A stretch of DNA of 64,000 nucleotides from Bdellovibrionales bacterium Ga0074137 (lineage in GTDB: Bacteria; Bdellovibrionota; Bdellovibrionia; Bdellovibrionales; JAMPXM01). The notes below the pieces were generated by a model. It saw only the letters and a program-made list of their open reading frames with translations, searched no databases and had not been told where the DNA came from. This document shows positions 980 through 33,121 of the stretch, piece by piece. How positions within the stretch are numbered: the stretch's first letter is position 1; every line of letters starts with the position of its first letter. The position numbers and the translations under genes are program-made. The stretch lies in contig LNDT01000013.1 in the NCBI GenBank assembly GCA_001464715.1, forward strand, positions 19,823-83,822, read 5' to 3'.

Positions 980-3900
980 TAGAGATTCCTTCTGTACTGT
1001 CCGCCCACTTCATAAAGCGCTTGAGTCATCTGAAAAAGAGAACAAACGCGCGCCGCTGTCATCAGCGCTCCGAAGATATTTTCCCCGGCCAACGCCGCAT
1101 TTTTCAGAGCCGTCAGCGCAGAGTCGGACTCAGAGGCATGAGCCGACTGATATTTTCTTACGCGGTCGAGCTGCAAATTTTTTTCTTCGTAACTCGCGCG
1201 AGCCATTTCGATTTTTGGTGGCTCGTAGCCAGCCGCCAAAGTTTTTTGATTGATGAAAGTGTTGACGCCAATCACCGGCAGCTCGCCAGAATGTTTGAGA
1301 TGCTCATAAAGCATCGACTCGTCCTGAATTTTTCCGCGCTGGTATTGAGTTTCCATCGCACCCAAAACTCCGCCACGCTCGTTGAGGCGCATAAATTCTG
1401 AAAGGACTGCTTCTTCAACAAGGTCCGTGAGCTCTTCGAAGAAGAAAGACCCTTGCATCGGGTTCTCGTTCTTCGCCATTCCGAATTCTTTATTGATGAT
1501 AAGCTGGATCGCCATCGCGCGACGAACACTCTCTTCGGTCGGCGTTGTGATGGCCTCATCGTAAGCGTTTGTATGAAGGGAATTGCAATTGTCGTAAATC
1601 GCCAAAAGCGCTTGAAGCGAAGTTCGAATGTCGTTGAAGTCGATCTCTTGCGCGTGAAGAGACCTTCCGGAAGTTTGAATGTGGTACTTCAGTTTTTGCG
1701 AGCGATCTGCGCCCTGGTAAACGTCGCTCATTGCAATTGCCCAGATCCGGCGAGCCACACGACCAATCACAGAGTATTCAGGATCGAGTCCGTTAGAGAA
1801 GAAGAACGAAAGATTCGGGGCAAAATCATCAACCTTCATTCCACGCGAACGGTAATACTCGACAAAAGTAAATGCATTCGACAGCGTGAACGCCAGCTGC
1901 GAAATCGGATTCGCGCCGGCTTCAGCAATGTGGTAGCCCGAAATTGAAACAGAATAGAAATTTTTAATTTGCTGCTCGATGAAATACGACTGGATGTCGC
2001 CCATCATCTTCAATGCAAAATCGATCGAGAAGATGCACGTGTTCTGACCCTGATCTTCCTTTAAAATATCGGCCTGAACCGTGCCGCGCACATTTTGAAG
2101 CGTCCACGCTGAAACTTCGGCATGTTCCGTGGCCGAAAGTTTTCGACCGAGTTTCGTTTCTTTCAGGCCCACCTGCTGGTCGATCGCGGTGTTCATAAAA
2201 AACGCGAGAATCATTGGGGCAGGTCCATTGATCGTCATCGACACCGAAGTGTTCGGCGCACAAAGATCAAACCCCTCATAAAGCCGCTTCATATCGTCAA
2301 GAGTACAAATCGAAACACCCGACTCGCCGACTTTACCAAAAATATCGGGTCTCGTGTCAGGATCTTGTCCGTAGAGAGTCACTGAATCGAAAGCCGTCGA
2401 GAGACGATTGGCAGGCTGACCTTTGGCCAAATAATGAAACCGCGTGTTCGTTCGCTCCGGGGGGCCTTCCCCGGCAAACATGCGCGCAGGATCTTCACCG
2501 TCTCGCTTTAGCGGAAACACGCCGGCCGTAAATGGAAACTCGCCAGGCACATTTTCAAGTCTCAAAAACCGAACGCGGTCGCCCCAATCTTTTACTTTCG
2601 GGGTCGCGACACGGCGGATTTTTGTTCCTGAAAGACTTTGGCGTGTCATCGGCTGCTTGATTGATTTTCCGCGGACTTCGTAAACGTAGTCGTCGGCTTC
2701 ATAGCGGCGGATGAAATCATCCCAGGAATCAAGCTTTCGAAGCATTTCTTCGCCGAGGCTTTCGCGCCAAACTTTTAAGTTCTTTTCATCGACTTTGACC
2801 ACTTCACTTAAAGTTTGAGCGGCACCAAGCTTAGTTGCACTCATCGCCATCGATTCTGTGTCCGCTTTGTAGCGACGTACACTCGATGCGATTTCAGCCA
2901 AGTAGTTTTGTCTTTCGGGCGGAACGATGGTCGATCTCTTGACGCCTTTTACCCGAGACCGGTACTCGTCCGACAATTTCCAAAACAATTTCTTCTCAAC
3001 ATCGCCATTCTTCGCAGAAGCCTCACCAAGAGCTTCGCTCAAAGCAAAAAACAGCGAGTTACAGCCTTCATCGTTGAACTGCTGCGCCTGGGTAAGAAAC
3101 ACGGGAAGCCTTCGGTCCGCTTCGTCGCTGGGAGCTTCAAAGAGCTTTCTTGAACGACGAAACTGCTTGCGAACATCGCGAAGTGCATCCTGGGCGCCTC
3201 GGCGATCTGCTTTATTGATCGCGATGAGGTCCGCAAAATCAATCATATCGATTTTTTCAAGCTGCGACTGAGCACCGAATTCAGACGTCATCACATAGAG
3301 GGTCAAATCTGATAGTGTCGTGATTGCGTTCTGTGCCTGACCAATACCGCTCGTCTCGGCAATCAACAGATCAAAATCGTAAGCTTTCAAAAATTCGAGC
3401 ATCTTGGGAAGGCTTGCTGCGATTTCACTTCCAGATCCACGACTGGCCACCGACCGCATGAAAGCACCGGGCCGAGACAATGAGTTCATGCGAATGCGGT
3501 CACCTAAGAGTGCACCACCCGTCTTTCTTTTTGATGGATCAACGCACACGACGCCGACTTTGAAGTCAGGGTACGCGTTGAGTAGTCGCTGCAAAAGCTC
3601 ATCGACCAAAGAGGACTTTCCCGCCCCTCCGGTACCGGTGACACCCAGAACGAGCGGTGCCATTTTCGATTTGCGTTTGAATGTTTCAAGCCGTTTCAAG
3701 GTCTCCGAAGATATCTCGGGGTTTGAACTCGCCGACATTTCGATGGCCGTCAAAGCTTCACCGAGATCGCGACTTGGGATCATCGAATTCACTGACGACG
3801 CCCCGTTGGTCACGGGCTTTGAAGGTGATTTCGGTTTTTTCAATGGATCAAAATCACAGCCCTCGATGATTTGGTCGATCATACCTTCAAGACCAAGCTT

Positions 3901-11577: not shown

Positions 11578-11611
11578 TATATGTCGGCATATATGTCGGC
11601 TATATGTCGGC
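11578..11611. repeat. 3 direct copies of TATATGTCGGC at 12- and 11-bp phasing
   Basis: Exact copies at 11578-11588, 11590-11600 and 11601-11611, in the intergenic region between the fadJ stop (11628) and the lipoprotein gene start (11356). Confidence 0.9.
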
Positions 11612-22612: not shown

Positions 22613-25045
22613 TTATTCTTTCGCTCCAACGCGAAGCTTAAGTCGCTGGACTATTTCATCCGTCGACATCGCCGCTACGGGCTCGACTCCGAAGACATCA
22701 TCTATTTGTCGACCCCACGTATGAACTTTCGCCCACAAAACAGAGAGACCTTCGTCGGCAATGGCTTCGGCCGCAGCTAGGAGTGCGCCCTTCGTGTCTC
22801 GACCTCGAAAACTTAAAACCCACTCGGTCGGCGAGGCCGAACATTCGATCTCATCAAAGATCTTAAGCTCAGCCCCTTCGCAGCTTCTGTCTCTTTCTCT
22901 GGGGCCATCGGCATTCCAAATTCGCAGAAGTTTAGCTTCTAGCCCTTTGAGAGAATTCGGCGGCTTCACTTCGAACCAATCGTAAACTCCAACCTGATCA
23001 GCGGACAAAATACTCGCATGCCGCACCGAAAGGCCTGCAGCCTGAAGCGTTCGGGCCATCTTCACAAAAAGACCAGCGCGATCCACGGACGTTTGAAAAC
23101 GCACCCAGACACGCCCTTCTTTGGAAAGCTTCAACACACGCACCGAGATATTTGGCTCGCGACCCACGGTCACGATGTCTTCAGCCAAAGTCTTCACAGG
23201 AATCGTTGCGACCAAGAAAGGATCTAAACGATCAAGCAGCGGCAAGAGTTCGCGACCGGCTTTAGACTCATCAAGTTTGCGCTCGAGCGAAGAAAGCATC
23301 TTCGCTTCAGGTCTCTCTAGAAATTCTACCAGCTCCGCCAAAAGCCGTTCTTTCCATGGAGTGTAGGCCTCACGGTTGGTGGCGCGAATGTCGACACACG
23401 TAAAAATCGCCAGCCGAAGAAGGCGTTTTCCTTCAATACCTTTAGCATGGAGTCGGCGCCAGGTTGTCGGATGCGCCGGATTTCCGCGGAAAGCCGCCAG
23501 CGAAAGCTCAAGATGGTTTTCAATGAGCCAAATCACTTCCAAGATCATCTCTTGAGAGAGCCCCCATTTTTCGAGATCGTTTCTTGCGATCATCACTGAC
23601 TTATCTGAGTGATCACCACCAGTGCCCTTTCCGACATCGTGATAAAGTGCGGTCCACCCTAGAATCTTCCACTCATCCCTAGAGAGTGCTTTTGCTATTC
23701 CCGAGAGCCGCCCCAGCGTTCCAGGCTTCTGGGCGACACGTTTCATCTCGCGAACCGCTTGCATCAAGTGCGCATCGACGGTGTACCGATGGTACTGATC
23801 GTGTTGAACGTAACCCACGATCTTTTTGAAATCAGTCACGGCCAAGTCGATCCACCGCGAACGAAAAAGAGCCAGTGTGACTTTGTCGTCTTGAAGCGGA
23901 TCGACCGCGCGAGACAAAAGTCGCCCCAAGGCCTCGTTCGCACGAGTTTTCTCAAGCTCACTTTTTCGCACGGCCGATCGGTAAAGTCGAAAGCCAGTGT
24001 CTCGCGCTTTCGCCTGAACCAGCACCGTGGGCTCCTTTTCAAGCCAGGCGGCAAGCTCGACAAATTCCATTTCTTTGGAATGAAACCTCTGAAGCTTAAC
24101 TTCTGAGATTTTGACGTGCTCAAAATCAACGTCGGCATAGAACGAAACGCGCGACAGGCCTTTTTGAATCTCTCGCATAAATTCGCGACTGGATGTGAAG
24201 CCAAACCACGTGGCGATGTCGGCCTGTTCGTGAGCACTCAAAAGATCGCCGCCACCATCAGACACCTGACTTCGAATTCGAGTCAGAAGAAAAAGTCGCC
24301 GGTAGTAATCATAGACATGAAGGGCATGCTCTCGCTCTGAGCTTAAAAATCTCTCCGGAAAAAGCTGACGCAGTTGAAGCGCTTGACCAAGATCGCGAAG
24401 ACCGCCGGGGCCATATTTAAGATTGGGCTCCAAGAAATTCGCGATCGAATCGTAGCGCTCGCCTCTTTGCTTTCGCTCGTCTTTAAGGGTTTTAAAAAAA
24501 CCACGCCGAACTTTTTTTAGCTTGGCTTTGACCTTCGAAATTCCCACCGCAAAGTGAGTCGCCGCGTCCTCGGTGAGCGGTTTTGCCAATAAAAGTGCAA
24601 GAACATCGAAAGCTTCTACACCTTTCATCCAATCGTCGCGGTCTTCAGGAGTTCGACTGCGGATTTTGATGCCAGCCTCTTGAGCTCGTCGTGTAACTTC
24701 GGCCGCCGCGGCTTCGTCGCCGATAAAAAGTAGATCAAGATCTGATTTTGGCGTCAATTCACCGCGGGCCCAACTTCCCAGAGCAATCGGTCGAGACCGC
24801 GCCCAGGCCGACGCCGAGGCCGCATCCTCTGTAAAGAACGCGATGATCGCTGATTCCAAGGCCAAGGTGAAAGCCGACAAATGAAGGGTCTCTGCCGCCT
24901 CTTCTTGCCCGTCGGGAACTGTTGACGGCGGCAAAAGGTGTTTTTTCGCTAGCTCTAAGATTTCATCTTTAGGCAGAAGAAATCGCGACCGCGAAGACAT
25001 CTTACTAATTGCGCCGGTTTCTAGCTTTGAAGTTCCTTTGTCCAC
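22613..25045 (-). CDS. glnD: [protein-PII] uridylyltransferase / uridylyl-removing enzyme
   Basis: 810 aa with an NTase motif (GSWARGELTPKSDLDLLF), an HD domain (LYHDVGKG) and two C-terminal ACT-like domains. The alternative start ATG 25000 would remove the overlap with mutS. Confidence 0.8.
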   Translation of the reverse strand: MDKGTSKLETGAISKMSSRSRFLLPKDEILELAKKHLLPPSTVPDGQEEAAETLHLSAFTLALESAIIAFFTEDAASASAWARSRPIALGSWARGELTPKSDLDLLFIGDEAAAAEVTRRAQEAGIKIRSRTPEDRDDWMKGVEAFDVLALLLAKPLTEDAATHFAVGISKVKAKLKKVRRGFFKTLKDERKQRGERYDSIANFLEPNLKYGPGGLRDLGQALQLRQLFPERFLSSEREHALHVYDYYRRLFLLTRIRSQVSDGGGDLLSAHEQADIATWFGFTSSREFMREIQKGLSRVSFYADVDFEHVKISEVKLQRFHSKEMEFVELAAWLEKEPTVLVQAKARDTGFRLYRSAVRKSELEKTRANEALGRLLSRAVDPLQDDKVTLALFRSRWIDLAVTDFKKIVGYVQHDQYHRYTVDAHLMQAVREMKRVAQKPGTLGRLSGIAKALSRDEWKILGWTALYHDVGKGTGGDHSDKSVMIARNDLEKWGLSQEMILEVIWLIENHLELSLAAFRGNPAHPTTWRRLHAKGIEGKRLLRLAIFTCVDIRATNREAYTPWKERLLAELVEFLERPEAKMLSSLERKLDESKAGRELLPLLDRLDPFLVATIPVKTLAEDIVTVGREPNISVRVLKLSKEGRVWVRFQTSVDRAGLFVKMARTLQAAGLSVRHASILSADQVGVYDWFEVKPPNSLKGLEAKLLRIWNADGPRERDRSCEGAELKIFDEIECSASPTEWVLSFRGRDTKGALLAAAEAIADEGLSVLWAKVHTWGRQIDDVFGVEPVAAMSTDEIVQRLKLRVGAKE
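23161..23173 (-). repeat. 13-mer copy (plus strand reads GACCCACGGTCAC)
   Basis: Exact, inside glnD. The coding strand reads GTG ACC GTG GGT C = V-T-V-G (EDIVTVGREPN). The coordinate was cross-checked from the ORF frame. Confidence 0.95.
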
Positions 25046-27864
25046 TCTGAGATCTTGCCCAAGGCTTCAAGCGGAGTCGAGCGATTGACATCAAAGCGCT
25101 CAATCTCTTTTAAAACTCCCTCAGCTTTTGGACTGATCGCTGGCCATGAAGGCGCGTCGAGGAGAAGCGAAAGCTGAGCACTTTGCGCAACTTTGGCAGA
25201 GCTCGTCGAAACGATGGGCTCGCGATGCACGACTCCGCTTGCAACACTTCCTTGAACGTCGCGAAGAATTCGCTCGGCCCGGTTTGTTACGGACAGCGGA
25301 AGTCCCGCAAGGCGCGCGACGTGAAGTCCGTACGACTGACCCGCCTCACCGTCCTTCAGGCGATGAAGGAATGTGATGACGCCGTCTTTTTCATGAATCG
25401 CCATGTGACAGTTCCTGATGCGATCGAAGTCTTTTTTTAGCGCCGTCAGTTCGTGATAGTGTGTTGCGAACATCGTGAGACATCGCTTTTGTTCGAGCAA
25501 ATGTTCAAGTATCGCTTGAGCAATGCTCAGACCGTCAAATGTCGAAGTTCCACGCCCGATCTCGTCAAGAACGACCAGCGTTCTTTCATTCGCGTCAGCC
25601 AAAAGCTCGGCTGTTTCTTTCATCTCAACCATGAATGTTGAAAGGCCTTCGGATAAGAAATCACTCGCACCGATGCGAGTTGCCACACGATCTAAAAGTG
25701 ATAACTCGGCTTCCCGGGCTGGAACAAAACTTCCGACCTGAGCCATGATGACAGCGATGGCCGCTTGCCTCATTAAGGTCGACTTACCCGCCATGTTCGG
25801 TCCTGTTAGAAGAAGGCACCCGCCTTCATCCATACTGATATCGTTTTCGACGAACGGTTTTGAAAGAGACTGTTCGACAACGGGATGCCGTGAACCTTTC
25901 AGTCTTAGGCCGACCGGCTGCGTGGAGCTTCGAAAACGAGGTCTTATGTAACGCTCTTCACTGGCGAGATGAGCCAAAGCCGACACGACATCAAGCTCTG
26001 CCAGACTCAAAGCAAAACGCATCAAAACTTTCGACTGACTGAGTACGAACTGAACAAGTTTTAAAAACTCTTCTTCTTCCAGCTTCAAACGCTTTTCCTG
26101 AGCCGAGATGACCTTGAGCTCGAGCTCGGAGAGTTCTTTCGTCGTGAAACGTTCGGCATTGGCCAGAGTTTGCTTTCGTTCGTAGCGATCCAACGGCACT
26201 CGTTCTTTGTGCGTATTCGTGATTTCGATCGAGTAGCCGAAGACATTGTTGTAGCGAACTTTGAGTGACGAAATACCGGTGAGTTCTTTTTCTCGGGCTT
26301 CAAGCTCCAGCACAAGACGATTTGAATTCGTCGACAATTCTATCAGCTCATCAAGCGCAGGACTTGCCCCAAGGCGAATCGCTCCGCCGTTTCGAACAAG
26401 AAGTGGCGGCTCTTCCACAATCACTCGCTCAATTTCTTTGACCACACTTGAAACTAGATCGGCTTCAGCCCTCGTAAATCCTTGCGACAAGCGCTCATCC
26501 ACAGATTGGGCCGCTTGCCAGCTGCTAAGGCCCGAAGCCAAAGATTGTGCTAGCGACAAGATGTCTCGTGGACCTCTTGATGGCTGACTGATTTTTCCCA
26601 GTCTTCTTGGAAGGTCACCGACGCCGGCCAACGCTTGCCGAAGACTTTTTCTGTTGAGATCACTTTGAACCCAAGTGCTCACCCGATCATGTCTTGCCGC
26701 GATCGCCGTCTCGTCATTGAGAGGGAACTGAAGCCATGACTTAAGAAGCCTCGCGCCCCCACTCGATTTCGTGCGGTCGATGGCTTGTAGCAAAGAACCT
26801 TGCCGCTCCCCTCGATTGGTTTCAAAGATTTCTAAATGCCGAAGTGTAGAGCCCGACAAAACCATGCGTCCTTCAAGACGTCGTTCTTCAAATGGCGTTA
26901 GAGAGTCGGCCCACACCTGCGCAGCACCACGGCCGCCGGTGGTTGAGACCGTGCTTGCATTGGAGAACTGCCCGATCGAATAAGCGAGAAGGCGACGAAC
27001 ACAGTCCGGACTGTTTTTATCGACCGTCGGCTCTATGATTTCTCCGTCAGCGGCGATCCATGAAAAATCATCTTGAGCTGTGAGAGAGGCACCCATTTTG
27101 TCGGCGAATTCTTTAATCTCGGGTCTGTCGGCATTGTCGCTGGATAAAACCCACTCAACAGCCTGAAGACTTCCCAAAAATTCTCGGCATCGATCTCGCG
27201 AAACGCCGCGGAAATAAAATCCTTCGCCCGTTGAGACGTCAAAAAATGCCAACGCTCCATCAGCGTCCCACGACGCCAAATAATTCGCGCTCGACGCATC
27301 TAAAGTTTCGTGGTCATAGACCATGCCAGGCGACAGCACGCGCGTGATCCCGCGCTTCACCAAGCCTTTAGCAAATTTCGGATCTTCCAACTGATCACAG
27401 ATCGCGACTTTGAAACCGGCGTGCAAAAGTTTATTGATGATGTTGGTGGCCGAATGATGAGGCACTCCGCACATCGGCGTTTCGTCTTGCGACTTTTTAT
27501 TGCGAGACGTGAGAGCGATGCCAAGGACGGGTGCCGCGAGTTCTGCGTCCCGGTGGAACATTTCAAAAAAATCACCCATGCGGAACAAAATAATCTTGTC
27601 CGGGTGCGCGGCCTTCACATCCCAGTACTGCTGCATTAAGGGCGTTATTCGCCCTGCGGGCGAGGGCGTTATTCGCCCTGCGGGCGAGGGCGTTATTCGC
27701 CCTGCGGGCGAGGGCGTTATTCGCCCATGAGGTGAGGACGACGAGGATTTCTGGAGACCCACGGTCACTTCGGAGCCCACTTCTGAATCAACTGCCATAC
27801 CGAATTCGATATCATCACCGGCGGGAGCTCTCCTCTCCCAATGCAGCGCAACAACACTAATCAT
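25021..27864 (-). CDS. mutS: DNA mismatch repair protein MutS (start uncertain)
   Basis: The conserved MutS core starts at ITPLMQQYW...GDFFEMF and includes the Walker A TGPNMAGKST. The track ORF runs to 27945. Candidate starts are ATG 27864 (GAAGG about 10 nt upstream), ATG 27798 and ATG 27636. Confidence 0.85.
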   Translation of the reverse strand: MISVVALHWERRAPAGDDIEFGMAVDSEVGSEVTVGLQKSSSSSPHGRITPSPAGRITPSPAGRITPSPAGRITPLMQQYWDVKAAHPDKIILFRMGDFFEMFHRDAELAAPVLGIALTSRNKKSQDETPMCGVPHHSATNIINKLLHAGFKVAICDQLEDPKFAKGLVKRGITRVLSPGMVYDHETLDASSANYLASWDADGALAFFDVSTGEGFYFRGVSRDRCREFLGSLQAVEWVLSSDNADRPEIKEFADKMGASLTAQDDFSWIAADGEIIEPTVDKNSPDCVRRLLAYSIGQFSNASTVSTTGGRGAAQVWADSLTPFEERRLEGRMVLSGSTLRHLEIFETNRGERQGSLLQAIDRTKSSGGARLLKSWLQFPLNDETAIAARHDRVSTWVQSDLNRKSLRQALAGVGDLPRRLGKISQPSRGPRDILSLAQSLASGLSSWQAAQSVDERLSQGFTRAEADLVSSVVKEIERVIVEEPPLLVRNGGAIRLGASPALDELIELSTNSNRLVLELEAREKELTGISSLKVRYNNVFGYSIEITNTHKERVPLDRYERKQTLANAERFTTKELSELELKVISAQEKRLKLEEEEFLKLVQFVLSQSKVLMRFALSLAELDVVSALAHLASEERYIRPRFRSSTQPVGLRLKGSRHPVVEQSLSKPFVENDISMDEGGCLLLTGPNMAGKSTLMRQAAIAVIMAQVGSFVPAREAELSLLDRVATRIGASDFLSEGLSTFMVEMKETAELLADANERTLVVLDEIGRGTSTFDGLSIAQAILEHLLEQKRCLTMFATHYHELTALKKDFDRIRNCHMAIHEKDGVITFLHRLKDGEAGQSYGLHVARLAGLPLSVTNRAERILRDVQGSVASGVVHREPIVSTSSAKVAQSAQLSLLLDAPSWPAISPKAEGVLKEIERFDVNRSTPLEALGKISEWTKELQS
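27640..27726 (-). repeat. perfect 24-bp tandem repeat x3.6 in the 5' region of mutS
   Basis: The plus-strand unit GGGCGTTATTCGCCCTGCGGGCGA occurs at 27640, 27664 and 27688, with a partial copy at 27712-27726, all identical. It encodes (GRITPSPA)x3 + GRITP. Each unit contains the palindrome GGGCG-TTATT-CGCCC. Confidence 0.95.
27756..27768 (-). repeat. 13-mer copy (plus strand reads GACCCACGGTCAC)
   Basis: Exact, in the mutS 5' extension. It reads V-T-V-G (GSEVTVGLQK), 30 bp from the 24-bp tandem repeat. Confidence 0.95.
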
Positions 27865-27935
27865 TGAACTAAAGCCTTCTAGAGCGAACGATCTCGATCT
27901 GAGGCCGCAAGCGACCACCATCCAAGGAGCCCGGG

Positions 27936-28586
27936 ATGCGCACAAATCGCCGAATTTTTACGCTCGTTCGACTGATCATCGGCATCAATATCGCCGTCTT
28001 TGTGGCGTGGCTCTACTCGGGATCTGGCGAAATCGATCGCGACCTAATGACAAACTATTTCCTCATCAGCTTTGAAGCCCTTCAAGAGGGGCGATACCTA
28101 GCACTTCTTGGGTCCGCCTTCTCACACAATATGCTTTTGCATGTGGCTCTAAATCTCTTCGTGCTGAACAGCTTCGGGCCCATCGTTGAAATGACTCTTG
28201 GTGCCCGACGATTTCTTGGATTTTATCTCGTGGCGAGCGTGGTGAGTTCCCTCTCGCATGCTCTCGTCTCAAACTACATTTTGCAGGAACCAAATCTTCC
28301 CGCTCTTGGTGCGTCCGGAGCGATCGCGGGACTTATTTTGTTGTTCTCACTTTTATTTCCAAAACAGAAGATTCTCATCCTCGGGATTATCCCCGTCCCC
28401 GCGTTTTTCGGAGCGCTACTTTTTATCGGTTTGGATCTTTGGGGCCTCAGCGCGCAAGCAAAAGGCGGCGGTCTTCCGATAGGCCACGGCGCCCATTTAG
28501 GAGGAGCGGCCGCGGGACTCGTCTACGGAATCTGGCTTCGCGCTGAAGCCAGTCGCCGCGAAAAATTGGACGACCTCAAGTCGTAG
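27936..28586 (+). CDS. rhomboid-family intramembrane serine protease
   Basis: 216 aa, polytopic, with a GASGAIAGL serine motif and HGAHLGG histidine motif. Confidence 0.8.
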   Translation: MRTNRRIFTLVRLIIGINIAVFVAWLYSGSGEIDRDLMTNYFLISFEALQEGRYLALLGSAFSHNMLLHVALNLFVLNSFGPIVEMTLGARRFLGFYLVASVVSSLSHALVSNYILQEPNLPALGASGAIAGLILLFSLLFPKQKILILGIIPVPAFFGALLFIGLDLWGLSAQAKGGGLPIGHGAHLGGAAAGLVYGIWLRAEASRREKLDDLKS

Positions 28587-32517: not shown

Positions 32518-33121
32518 AAAGTTCGACAACACGGCGCCAACTTTTTCCTTTTTGAAGAAGCTTACGGGACGGAACAAATCCTTGAGCTTCTAGCTGGTTC
32601 AAAGTGACGTAGTCTCTTACGGTTCTAAAGTGCCTTCCCCAATAAACACGCTTCGAGTAGGGACGTGCATCCCAAAATCCACGCTCCACTACGGCATCTC
32701 GGCCAGTATTCCCTCCCTTCCCTCCCTTCCCTCCCTTAACCCCCTTCCCTCGACCCACGGTCACCTTCCTTTGATCGGCGATTCTTCGGAATCCGACAGC
32801 TCTTGCGATCCCACCAGCGAGGCCCGAAATAAACCCCTTCCACTTGAGTGGCCGAGTCACTCTCAAATGAATGTGAATGTGGTTCCCAACATTGGCGAAC
32901 TTATAGATCGTAACTCCGTGACGTTCCGACATCCCGCGAATGAGCCGTTGAATCTTTGCTTCGTTCTTTAGAAGACTCATTCGGCCTCGCGCGAGCGAAC
33001 TACGCATCACCACGTGCATAGATTGGTACGACACCACGGGACGCCGTACTCGAACACTTCGGGTCGTTCGCTTTCCGGGATTAAAAACTTCAGGAGTAAG
33101 TTGGCGTTTGATTTTTTTCAT
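32450..33121 (-). CDS. HUH / Y1 tyrosine transposase-like protein (IS200/IS605 TnpA superfamily, RAYT-like), single copy
   Basis: It has HVVMRSS...IYKFANVGNHIHIHLRV (HUH motif) and RGFWDARPYSKRVY...RTVRDYVTLNQ (catalytic-Tyr Yxxx(N)(Q/P) block). A low-complexity insert lies between the two motifs and carries one 13-mer copy and a KGG x3 repeat. I saw no tnpB and no IS ends. The 3' end overlaps mpl convergently by 68 bp. The track ORF start is 33139; ATG 33121 (MKKIKRQL) is preferred. Confidence 0.6.
   Translation of the reverse strand: MKKIKRQLTPEVFNPGKRTTRSVRVRRPVVSYQSMHVVMRSSLARGRMSLLKNEAKIQRLIRGMSERHGVTIYKFANVGNHIHIHLRVTRPLKWKGFISGLAGGIARAVGFRRIADQRKVTVGRGKGVKGGKGGKGGNTGRDAVVERGFWDARPYSKRVYWGRHFRTVRDYVTLNQLEAQGFVPSRKLLQKGKSWRRVVELFSEHFLSSTEASDRFRQSHHWT
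32711..32737 (-). repeat. perfect 9-bp tandem repeat x3 (CCCTCCCTT on + strand) inside the Y1 gene
   Basis: Copies at 32711-32719, 32720-32728 and 32729-32737 are identical. They encode KGG-KGG-KGG and lie 14 nt from the 13-mer copy at 32752. Confidence 0.95.
32752..32764 (-). repeat. 13-mer copy (plus strand reads GACCCACGGTCAC)
   Basis: Exact, inside the Y1 transposase-like gene. It reads V-T-V-G (QRKVTVGRGKG). Confidence 0.95.

Follow-up and report, generated by a model that had tools for sequence, protein, structure and literature searches.

Coding minisatellites, or variable-number tandem repeats (VNTRs), occur in low-complexity, disordered protein segments, and a hairpin lying between direct repeats is a classic substrate for hairpin-assisted replication slippage. 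The MutS family of mismatch-repair proteins itself includes members with disordered N-terminal regions, the eukaryotic MSH6 and MSH3, in which these regions run to hundreds of residues and carry a PIP box and PWWP. Among bacterial mismatch-repair genes, mutL of Salmonella and Escherichia coli contains three 6-bp in-frame repeats that act as a genetic switch (Chen et al. 2010, PMC2955026). Here we describe a perfect 24-bp tandem array at the 5' end of the mutS gene of Bdellovibrionales bacterium Ga0074137, in a 64,000-nucleotide stretch of contig LNDT01000013.1 that we analyzed as a whole and refer to as the 64-kb window. The array is probably a translated, in-frame coding minisatellite in a disordered MutS tail, resized by hairpin-assisted slippage and tolerated by the protein.

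Like the mutL switch, the array is a short in-frame tandem repeat in a mismatch-repair gene, and its copy number would change by slipped-strand mispairing. In mutL, the repeat is part of a conserved functional region, where loss of one unit inactivates the protein. In contrast, the mutS unit is 24 bp long and lies in a nonconserved, predicted-disordered tail, and the last copy regenerates the domain boundary. It is N-terminal to Pfam domain I, in a segment with a predicted local distance difference test (pLDDT) score of <52 and a length of 4 to 85 residues among relatives. Furthermore, relatives with 1 to 4 copies keep intact MutS genes.

The array shares with coding VNTRs an in-frame unit (its length a multiple of 3), near-perfect copies whose number differs between close relatives, and a Pro/Ser/Gly/Thr/Arg-rich, predicted-disordered setting. 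Unlike the usual bacterial coding VNTRs, which lie in surface or secreted proteins, it sits in a housekeeping DNA repair enzyme, and its unit takes in the opening two residues of a conserved domain. As in hairpin-assisted slippage and quasipalindrome template switching, short direct repeats flank an inverted repeat able to form a stable hairpin, perfect palindromes accompany duplication, and changes at paired positions go together; the evidence here is purely comparative, and causality between hairpin and duplication could run in either direction. Like MSH6 and MSH3, this is a MutS-family protein with a flexible N-terminal extension before the mismatch-binding domain, but its tail has only 51 residues and no recognizable motif beyond S/T-P-x-x-like turns, and no homology is implied. 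The array is a fresh example of an already known type of feature, and it looks like a slippage-prone, tolerated protein-length variant rather than a mutator switch.

The tandem array and its copy number in relatives

Tandem Repeats Finder (TRF) gave the array the highest score of any tandem repeat in the window (176; 3.7 copies with 100% matches). Three exact, full units begin at 27640, 27664, and 27688, whereas dinucleotide shuffles yielded an expectation of 0.00. The whole array lies inside a single long open reading frame (ORF) on the minus strand (25021-27945) and in the coding sense reads ...SSSSSPH-GRITPSPA-GRITPSPA-GRITPSPA-GRITP-LMQQYW.... TRF and translation thus agree with the unit length, perfect identity, and reading given in the original prediction. 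In the register S-P-x-G-R-I-T-P the array comprises four units, and this register also holds two diverged units in L001, the closest relative.

The ORF encodes a canonical MutS (PF01624, 1.5e-40; PF05192, 1.4e-38; PF05190, 1.6e-22; PF00488, 2.6e-79) with domains I, III, IV, and V (ATPase), the composition of MutS1. Its translation contains RMGDFFEMF, with the Phe-X-Glu mismatch contact (GDFxE), and the Walker A motif GPNMAGKST. Among the best 120 of 4206 homologues at an E value of ≤1e-50, the named ones were all called MutS, and their names assign the window MutS to Bdellovibrionota/Bdellovibrionales. Position 1 of the Pfam MutS_I profile is the T of the last TP in the array, so the terminal partial unit supplies the first residues of domain I, and the proposal that the array duplicates the gene's own tail/domain I junction was confirmed. 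These two residues, T52 and P53, are invariant across the 52 MutS sequences of our alignment (A3), as are G75, D76, F77, and E79.

The 51-residue tail is predicted to be disordered: with the 52-sequence alignment, AlphaFold2 assigned residues 1 to 51 a pLDDT of 41 to 52 and no secondary structure, and the first predicted helix spans residues 53 to 64, beginning at P53 of TPLMQQYW. As far as the sequence can show, the repeats are translated as part of this tail, which from 27798 reads MAVDSEVGSEVTVGLQKSSSSSPH-(GRITPSPA)x3-GRI and then enters domain I at TPLMQQYW. The subclade tails that we examined (roughly 20 to 50 codons each) are all open in frame, and the indels between relatives (12, 24, 24, 45, and 51 nucleotides [nt]) are all multiples of three. 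The tails of relatives are of low complexity, and several carry other short repeats.

We compared the mutS 5' ends of the closest relatives, taken from Logan assemblies (L001 to L003, 92% amino acid identity; L004, 81%; L074 to L076, L095 to L098, and L005, 71 to 75%), a check that the original prediction had called for, and found 1 to 4 homologous units (Table 1). The unit consensus across the subclade is [SP][PTA][AG]GR[ILM]TP. The lengths of L076, L075, and L074 differ by steps of exactly 24 and 24 nt, those of L097 and L005 differ by 45 nt, and L001 and the window are separated by indels of 12 and 51 nt. Copy number therefore varies in frame, as had been anticipated.

Table 1. Residues and repeat units preceding LMQQYW in the window and in relatives
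Genome	Residues before LMQQYW	Units
L076	KLTP	1 TP-ending unit
L075	KLTP-PTAGRLTP	2 TP-ending units
L074	KLTP-PTAGRLTP-STAGRLTP	3 TP-ending units
L097	AEGRITP	1 TP-ending unit
L005	AGRIPP-PAGGRITP-PAGGRITP	3 units
L095	STAGRMTP	1 TP-ending unit
L001	SPEGRIAP-SPGGRMTP	2 units, 75% identical at the DNA level
Window	SPHGRITP + 3 x SPAGRITP	4 units, three perfect

The units of L001 and the window imply that their common ancestor already had two, and the window lineage appears to have amplified and homogenized one of these, going from two to four. The perfect identity of the window copies indicates that this jump was recent, and the recent expansion proposed earlier fits the two diverged units of L001, the closest relative. 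The same junction also carries independent 12-bp KLTP duplications, distinguishing L077 from L008/P0031 and P0023 from L007. We rejected KLTP-PKMTP in P0021/L102 as a comparable case because it is an old, diverged 15-bp duplication without the hairpin described below. L004 has 12-bp units (PESR-PELR-PESR, 3160-3215) just before GRVTP, which shows that repeats of more than one period have arisen at this tail position.

Our searches for the same species with another copy number returned best matches of only 74% amino acid identity among GTDB representatives and only 63% in JGI metagenomes. Exact-protein look-ups with MutS and the neighboring rhomboid protein found only the source assembly and one short reassembly contig that stops before the array. 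Within the window, searches with 10- to 15-mers of the unit on both strands, with mismatches allowed, found no exact match of 11 nt or longer outside the array. A 13-mer copy had been reported about 30 bp upstream, but no 13-mer of the unit occurs with ≤1 mismatch in 27300-28200 outside the array; the region about 35 to 60 bp upstream holds a different sequence, an imperfect 12-bp tandem repeat unrelated to the 24-bp unit. The units are contiguous and without spacers, which ruled out clustered regularly interspaced short palindromic repeats (CRISPR), and neither palindrome of the unit occurs outside the array in the window, which ruled out a repetitive extragenic palindromic (REP)-like or mobile element.

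Hairpins in the unit and the proposed mechanism

The unit contains two hairpins that are mutually exclusive, competing for the GGGCG arm. Hairpin B is the 5-bp-stem palindrome (GGGCG-TTATT-CGCCC) already noted in the original prediction, and we found it 4 times against an expectation of 0.06. Hairpin A, which is GC-rich and which that account had missed, occurs 3 times against an expectation of 0.10. The predicted DNA folding energies are −6.2 kcal/mol for hairpin A and −7.0 kcal/mol for hairpin B, and the array as single-stranded DNA folds with a z score of −3.9 relative to shuffles. The RNA fold of the tail region in context was unexceptional relative to shuffles (z = −1.5), so that we no longer considered an exceptional mRNA structure spanning the region as a whole. 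A 6-bp direct repeat, ACGCCC, recurs every 24 bp, and the array contains a stable inverted repeat between direct repeats, the arrangement of a slippage hotspot.

Among relatives, hairpin B is present only in unit 0 of L001. The position of hairpin A still pairs in relatives through double changes: it reads TCGCCC-GGA-GGGCGA in L001, CCGGCC-GGA-GGCCGG twice in L005, and CCGACC-GCA-GGTCGG in L074 and L075. Across 14 aligned units, 82% of the cells are paired, and the covariation was 0.291, compared with 0.125 ± 0.039 in shuffles (reached in 0 of 500) and ≤0.174 when the partner was slid; with related units from few lineages, these statistics are suggestive, not conclusive. Compensation is seen as UA/CG at columns 1-15 and as CG/GC/AU at columns 4-12, with the varying partners at synonymous third positions in codons for Gly and Arg. 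The predicted DNA stability of hairpin A is −5.7 to −7.1 kcal/mol in every genome with a duplicated unit and −0.9 to −2.7 kcal/mol in the single-copy L095, L096, L097, and L004; L098 lacks the loop codon altogether. Hairpin A is perfect only where the unit is duplicated.

We propose that an old unit of the subclade has repeatedly gained and lost copies through slipped-strand mispairing. Replication slippage between the ACGCCC direct repeats flanking a stable hairpin would create and resize the array, and extra copies would only lengthen the tail, leaving domain I intact after the last copy. Duplications would be tolerated because the TP at the start of domain I belongs to the unit, so that the last copy rebuilds it, and because the tail accepts changes in length. 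Loops of 24 nt are beyond what bacterial MutS corrects, and mutS therefore cannot police its own repeat. The covariation of the hairpin could arise without selection, through templated correction of quasipalindromes (mechanism reviewed in PMC7202029). We infer both the slippage mechanism and the near-neutrality of the copies from these comparisons.

Tandem repeats scoring ≥40 in 90 mutS genes were distributed unevenly, with 3 in 7.2 kb of tail and about 10 in 209 kb of gene body, an approximately 9-fold enrichment in the tails. Repeats accumulate where the protein tolerates changes in length.

The mutS start and its surroundings

Three starts for mutS had been left open in the original prediction, at 27864, 27798, and 27636. 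The most likely one is ATG 27798 (Table 2), judging from conservation and from signatures across the clade; the disordered-extension reading is therefore favored, and the reading of the repeats as a structured leader upstream of 27636 is not supported. ATG 27798 is conserved as ATG in L001 and L004. In the segment between it and the public start (27799-27864), pairwise comparison of three genomes gave substitutions at codon positions 1/2/3 of 5/5/4, 5/8/5, and 7/7/4 and ratios of nonsynonymous to synonymous codon differences of 8:1, 9:3, and 9:1. The corresponding counts over the initial 600 nt of domain I were 14/6/71, 29/20/99, and 22/18/103, with 71 of the 91 differences in the first comparison at position 3. 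Fully conserved nucleotide blocks lie within the segment, which behaves like regulatory DNA rather than coding sequence, and the public start at 27864 is probably 22 codons too long.

Six loci have an in-frame stop codon 1 to 3 codons before the tail ATG (TAA in L074 to L076 and L098; TAG in L005 and L097). By eye, the N-terminal peptides of starts fixed by such stops (MANLDLE..GPKP and MTDFDLE..GPKP) resemble those that follow ATG 27798 in the window (MAVDSEV..VGLQK) and its counterpart in L001 (MSLEIDVTVGPQK). In 61 of 65 Bdellovibrionota loci, namely, those of about 90 related loci that have one in-frame candidate ATG, the first base of a TA dinucleotide falls at −15 to −12, and Shine-Dalgarno cores hardly occur in the set. 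TA lies at −13 from ATG 27798, at −17 and −7 from ATG 27864, and at −11 and −2 from ATG 27636, so only ATG 27798 fits the clade signature. The TA pattern resembles a −10 element and suggests that mutS mRNA may be leaderless or nearly so across the phylum.

Scanning 27500-28050 for sigma-70 promoters and terminators gave no hits. The window, L001, and L004 share the blocks TTAGTTCAA.G..TAG.GTTGTTGCG..GCATTGG..GAGGAG in 27815-27875, which are better kept than the coding tail beside them; they may serve mutS and the divergent rhomboid gene jointly as an operator or promoter. A −35 box could not be fitted to the conserved GCATTGG/GCGTTGAC blocks, whose distance to the −10-like element, 22 to 24 nt, is too long.

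Public annotations of the mutS start are inconsistent within the clade: ATG 27864 here, MTPLM in L001, and MQQYW in several metagenome-assembled genomes. In L004, the public call has a GTG start that overlaps and truncates the rhomboid call. The 947-amino-acid product from ATG 27864 is present in public collections (NCBI whole-genome shotgun project LNFM01 and JGI metagenome 3300002461).

Table 2. Features of the mutS 5' region, given as positions of the window
Feature	Position	Strand	Basis or remarks
mutS coding sequence as proposed, 925 amino acids	25021-27798	−	MutS domains I, III, IV, and V
Perfect 24-bp tandem array	27639-27726	−	TRF, shuffles; coding unit GGG CGA ATA ACG CCC TCG CCC GCA = G R I T P S P A
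Hairpin B, (A)GGGCG-AATAA-CGCCC(T), 4 copies	27640-27726	−	Codons G-R-I-T-P; noted earlier as a palindrome
ACG (Thr), first residue of MutS domain I (TPLMQQYW)	27643-27645	−	Pfam MutS_I profile, alignment, AlphaFold2
Hairpin A, TCGCCC-GCA-GGGCGA, 3 copies	27649-27663, 27673-27687, 27697-27711 (plus-strand positions)	−	6-bp stem, GNA triloop; codons S-P-A-G-R
Degenerate head of an older (fifth) unit, TCACCTCAT	27727-27735	−	TCA CCT CAT (S P H), corresponding to TCG CCC GCA (S P A) of the perfect units
Imperfect 12-bp tandem, TCAGAAGTGGGC/TCCGAAGTGACC (SEVG SEVT)	27763-27786	−	First unit absent in L001
ATG, most likely mutS start	27796-27798	−	Conserved; clade TA signature; N-terminal peptide likeness
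TGaTATCGA, −10-like element	27806-27814	−	Lies 7 nt ahead of ATG 27798; unchanged in L001 and L004; no Shine-Dalgarno sequence
ATG of public gene call, 947-amino-acid product	27862-27864	−	ACG at the equivalent position in L004
Divergent rhomboid-family gene with AAGGAG Shine-Dalgarno sequence	27936-28586	+	Bounds the 137-bp intergenic region

The gene order of S9 peptidase, rhomboid, mutS, and glnD-like gene is kept in most of the relatives that we fetched; L102 is an exception, in which no rhomboid gene separates mutS from the peptidase. Downstream of mutS follows a GlnD-like uridylyltransferase gene whose longest ORF (GTG 25045) shares 25 nt (25021-25045) with the 3' end of mutS, and both overlapping and nonoverlapping calls of this gene occur in relatives. 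Connector domain II of MutS gave no PF05188 match at an E value of ≤1e-3, and most close relatives also lack a precomputed match; the region is present in length and has a pLDDT of about 90 for residues 170 to 280.

The short reassembly contig mentioned above, L101 (ENA ERZ922819, run SRR2905836, from the same project), matches the window base for base over 27751-27940 apart from one insertion, an extra in-frame 12-bp unit, CTCCGAAGTGAC (an additional SEVT), about 35 bp upstream of the 24-bp array. The contig (positions 1 to 202) ends 25 nt before that array. The extra SEVT points to population heterogeneity or to assembly instability of the tail repeats.

In several genomes, tandem repeats also cluster at a second site in mutS, the C-terminal linker. 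The strongest is in L060 (nt ~2375 to 2434; 18 bp × 3.3, 97% identity), and repeats at nt ~2340 to 2480 are also found in L001, L004, L006, L012, L034, L049, and L054. Elsewhere in the window, TTCCCTCCC is repeated 4.8 times (82% matches) at 32709-32751, and an 11- to 12-bp unit is repeated 2.9 times (95%) at 11578-11611.

Alternative explanations and implications

Several points weigh against a tolerated coding minisatellite. The rare codons of the unit (ATA, GGG, and CGA among them; ATA, GGG, and GCA make up 0.05, 0.14, and 0.18 of their codon families) and the compensatory changes in the stem could reflect selection on nucleic acid structure instead of neutrality. The association of a perfect hairpin with duplication comes from about 3 independent duplicated lineages and about 5 single-copy lineages, and the compared units are related, so the shuffle statistics overstate significance. 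Copy numbers of the array were taken from short-read metagenome assemblies. Finally, the start codon was chosen by comparison of genomes, and ATG 27864 and TTG 27945 remain in frame as alternative starts.

A first alternative is that the hairpin of each unit is a selected nucleic acid element that functions in the 5' coding region, with copy number tuning the dosage of MutS. It might do so by slowing early elongation, together with the rare ATA/GGG/CGA codons, or by masking an internal ribosome-binding site. The compensatory changes at two stem positions, which fall at synonymous third positions of Gly and Arg codons, speak for such an element, as does the probability of a perfect stem given the peptide and the codon usage of the window (about 0.002). 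In L001, moreover, the loop together with the right arm yields GGAGG, followed after 4 nt by an in-frame ATG (GR-M-TP) that the public gene caller took as the start, and many Bdellovibrionota MutS proteins begin exactly with MTPLM. The window, however, has ATA rather than ATG before TP and no Shine-Dalgarno sequence. The hairpin is degraded in the single-copy L095, L096, L097, L098, and L004 and is therefore not kept wherever the peptide is, the RNA fold is unexceptional, and an Rfam search at permissive E values returned only chance snoRNA matches (E ~0.7) and no family match. Quasipalindrome correction would give the same covariation without selection (PMC7202029). We regard a selected element as unlikely.

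In its specific form, a selected hairpin module at the mutS start, possibly on a leaderless mRNA, would set the amount of MutS, either through pausing of early elongation on the ATA/GGG/CGA codons and the stem or through gating of an internal start at the codon before TP. We consider this quite improbable. If it were true, gain and loss of units would be a heritable, reversible dial on mismatch repair in these relatives of predatory bacteria, and one that mismatch repair itself would fail to detect, since MutS does not act on 24-nt loops.

A second alternative is that the repeat exists but that its 3.7 copies are a product of short-read assembly or a consensus of a mixed population. The source is a short-read metagenome (JGI 3300002461/LNFM01), and the independent MEGAHIT contig from a run of the same project ends 25 nt short of the array and differs in the nearby 12-bp unit. 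The 947-amino-acid product is nevertheless recorded on two contigs (47,304 and 96,619 bp), possibly from one assembly run, and an array of 88 bp is short enough for single reads to span. Independent genomes with 2 to 3 distinguishable unit copies indicate that multicopy states are real, and an assembly artifact is, in our estimate, quite unlikely.

The original prediction had also raised a contingency or mutator switch, in which gain or loss of units would alter MutS activity and reversibly shift the mutation rate of the population. Mismatch-repair genes offer a precedent for switching by in-frame repeat number (PMC2955026), copy number of the array clearly changes over evolutionary time, and the nearby 12-bp repeat differs between two assemblies of the same project. 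A unit of 8 codons, however, causes no frameshift and toggles nothing; it lies inside the ORF downstream of the start, where it shifts neither frame nor promoter spacing. It sits in the nonconserved, predicted-disordered tail rather than in a catalytic domain, and TPLMQQYW is always restored by the last unit. Relatives with 1, 2, 3, or 4 units keep full-length, highly conserved MutS, as expected if these alleles are functional, and we find a switch very unlikely.

A last alternative places the mutS start at ATG 27636 (MQQYW...) or one codon ahead of TP, which would make the repeats untranslated hairpins over the ribosome-binding region. The public annotations of P0008, P0009, P0014, and P0001, which start at MQQYW or MTPLM, and the position of the hairpins directly upstream of 27636 might suggest this. 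TP, however, opens Pfam domain I and is invariant in 52 of 52 aligned MutS proteins, and 27636 is preceded neither by a Shine-Dalgarno sequence nor by the clade TA signature at −15 to −12. No tail contains a stop, all indels come in multiples of 3, and stop codons gather shortly before the tail ATGs. GGAGG-N4-ATG, the arrangement of a leader that sequesters the Shine-Dalgarno sequence or of another cis-regulatory RNA, is found in L001 alone. We hold this alternative to be extremely unlikely.

If the array is an ordinary coding minisatellite in a tolerant tail, then the inconsistent public calls of the mutS start in this clade can be corrected. The locus would also be a clean natural example of a tolerated duplication of a domain boundary, in which the last copy regenerates the domain, and its unit of hairpin plus direct repeat would be a ready substrate for studying hairpin-assisted slippage. 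If the number of units instead changed the dosage or activity of MutS, the array would be a graded, in-frame "mutability dial" beside the known on/off routes to a mutator state.

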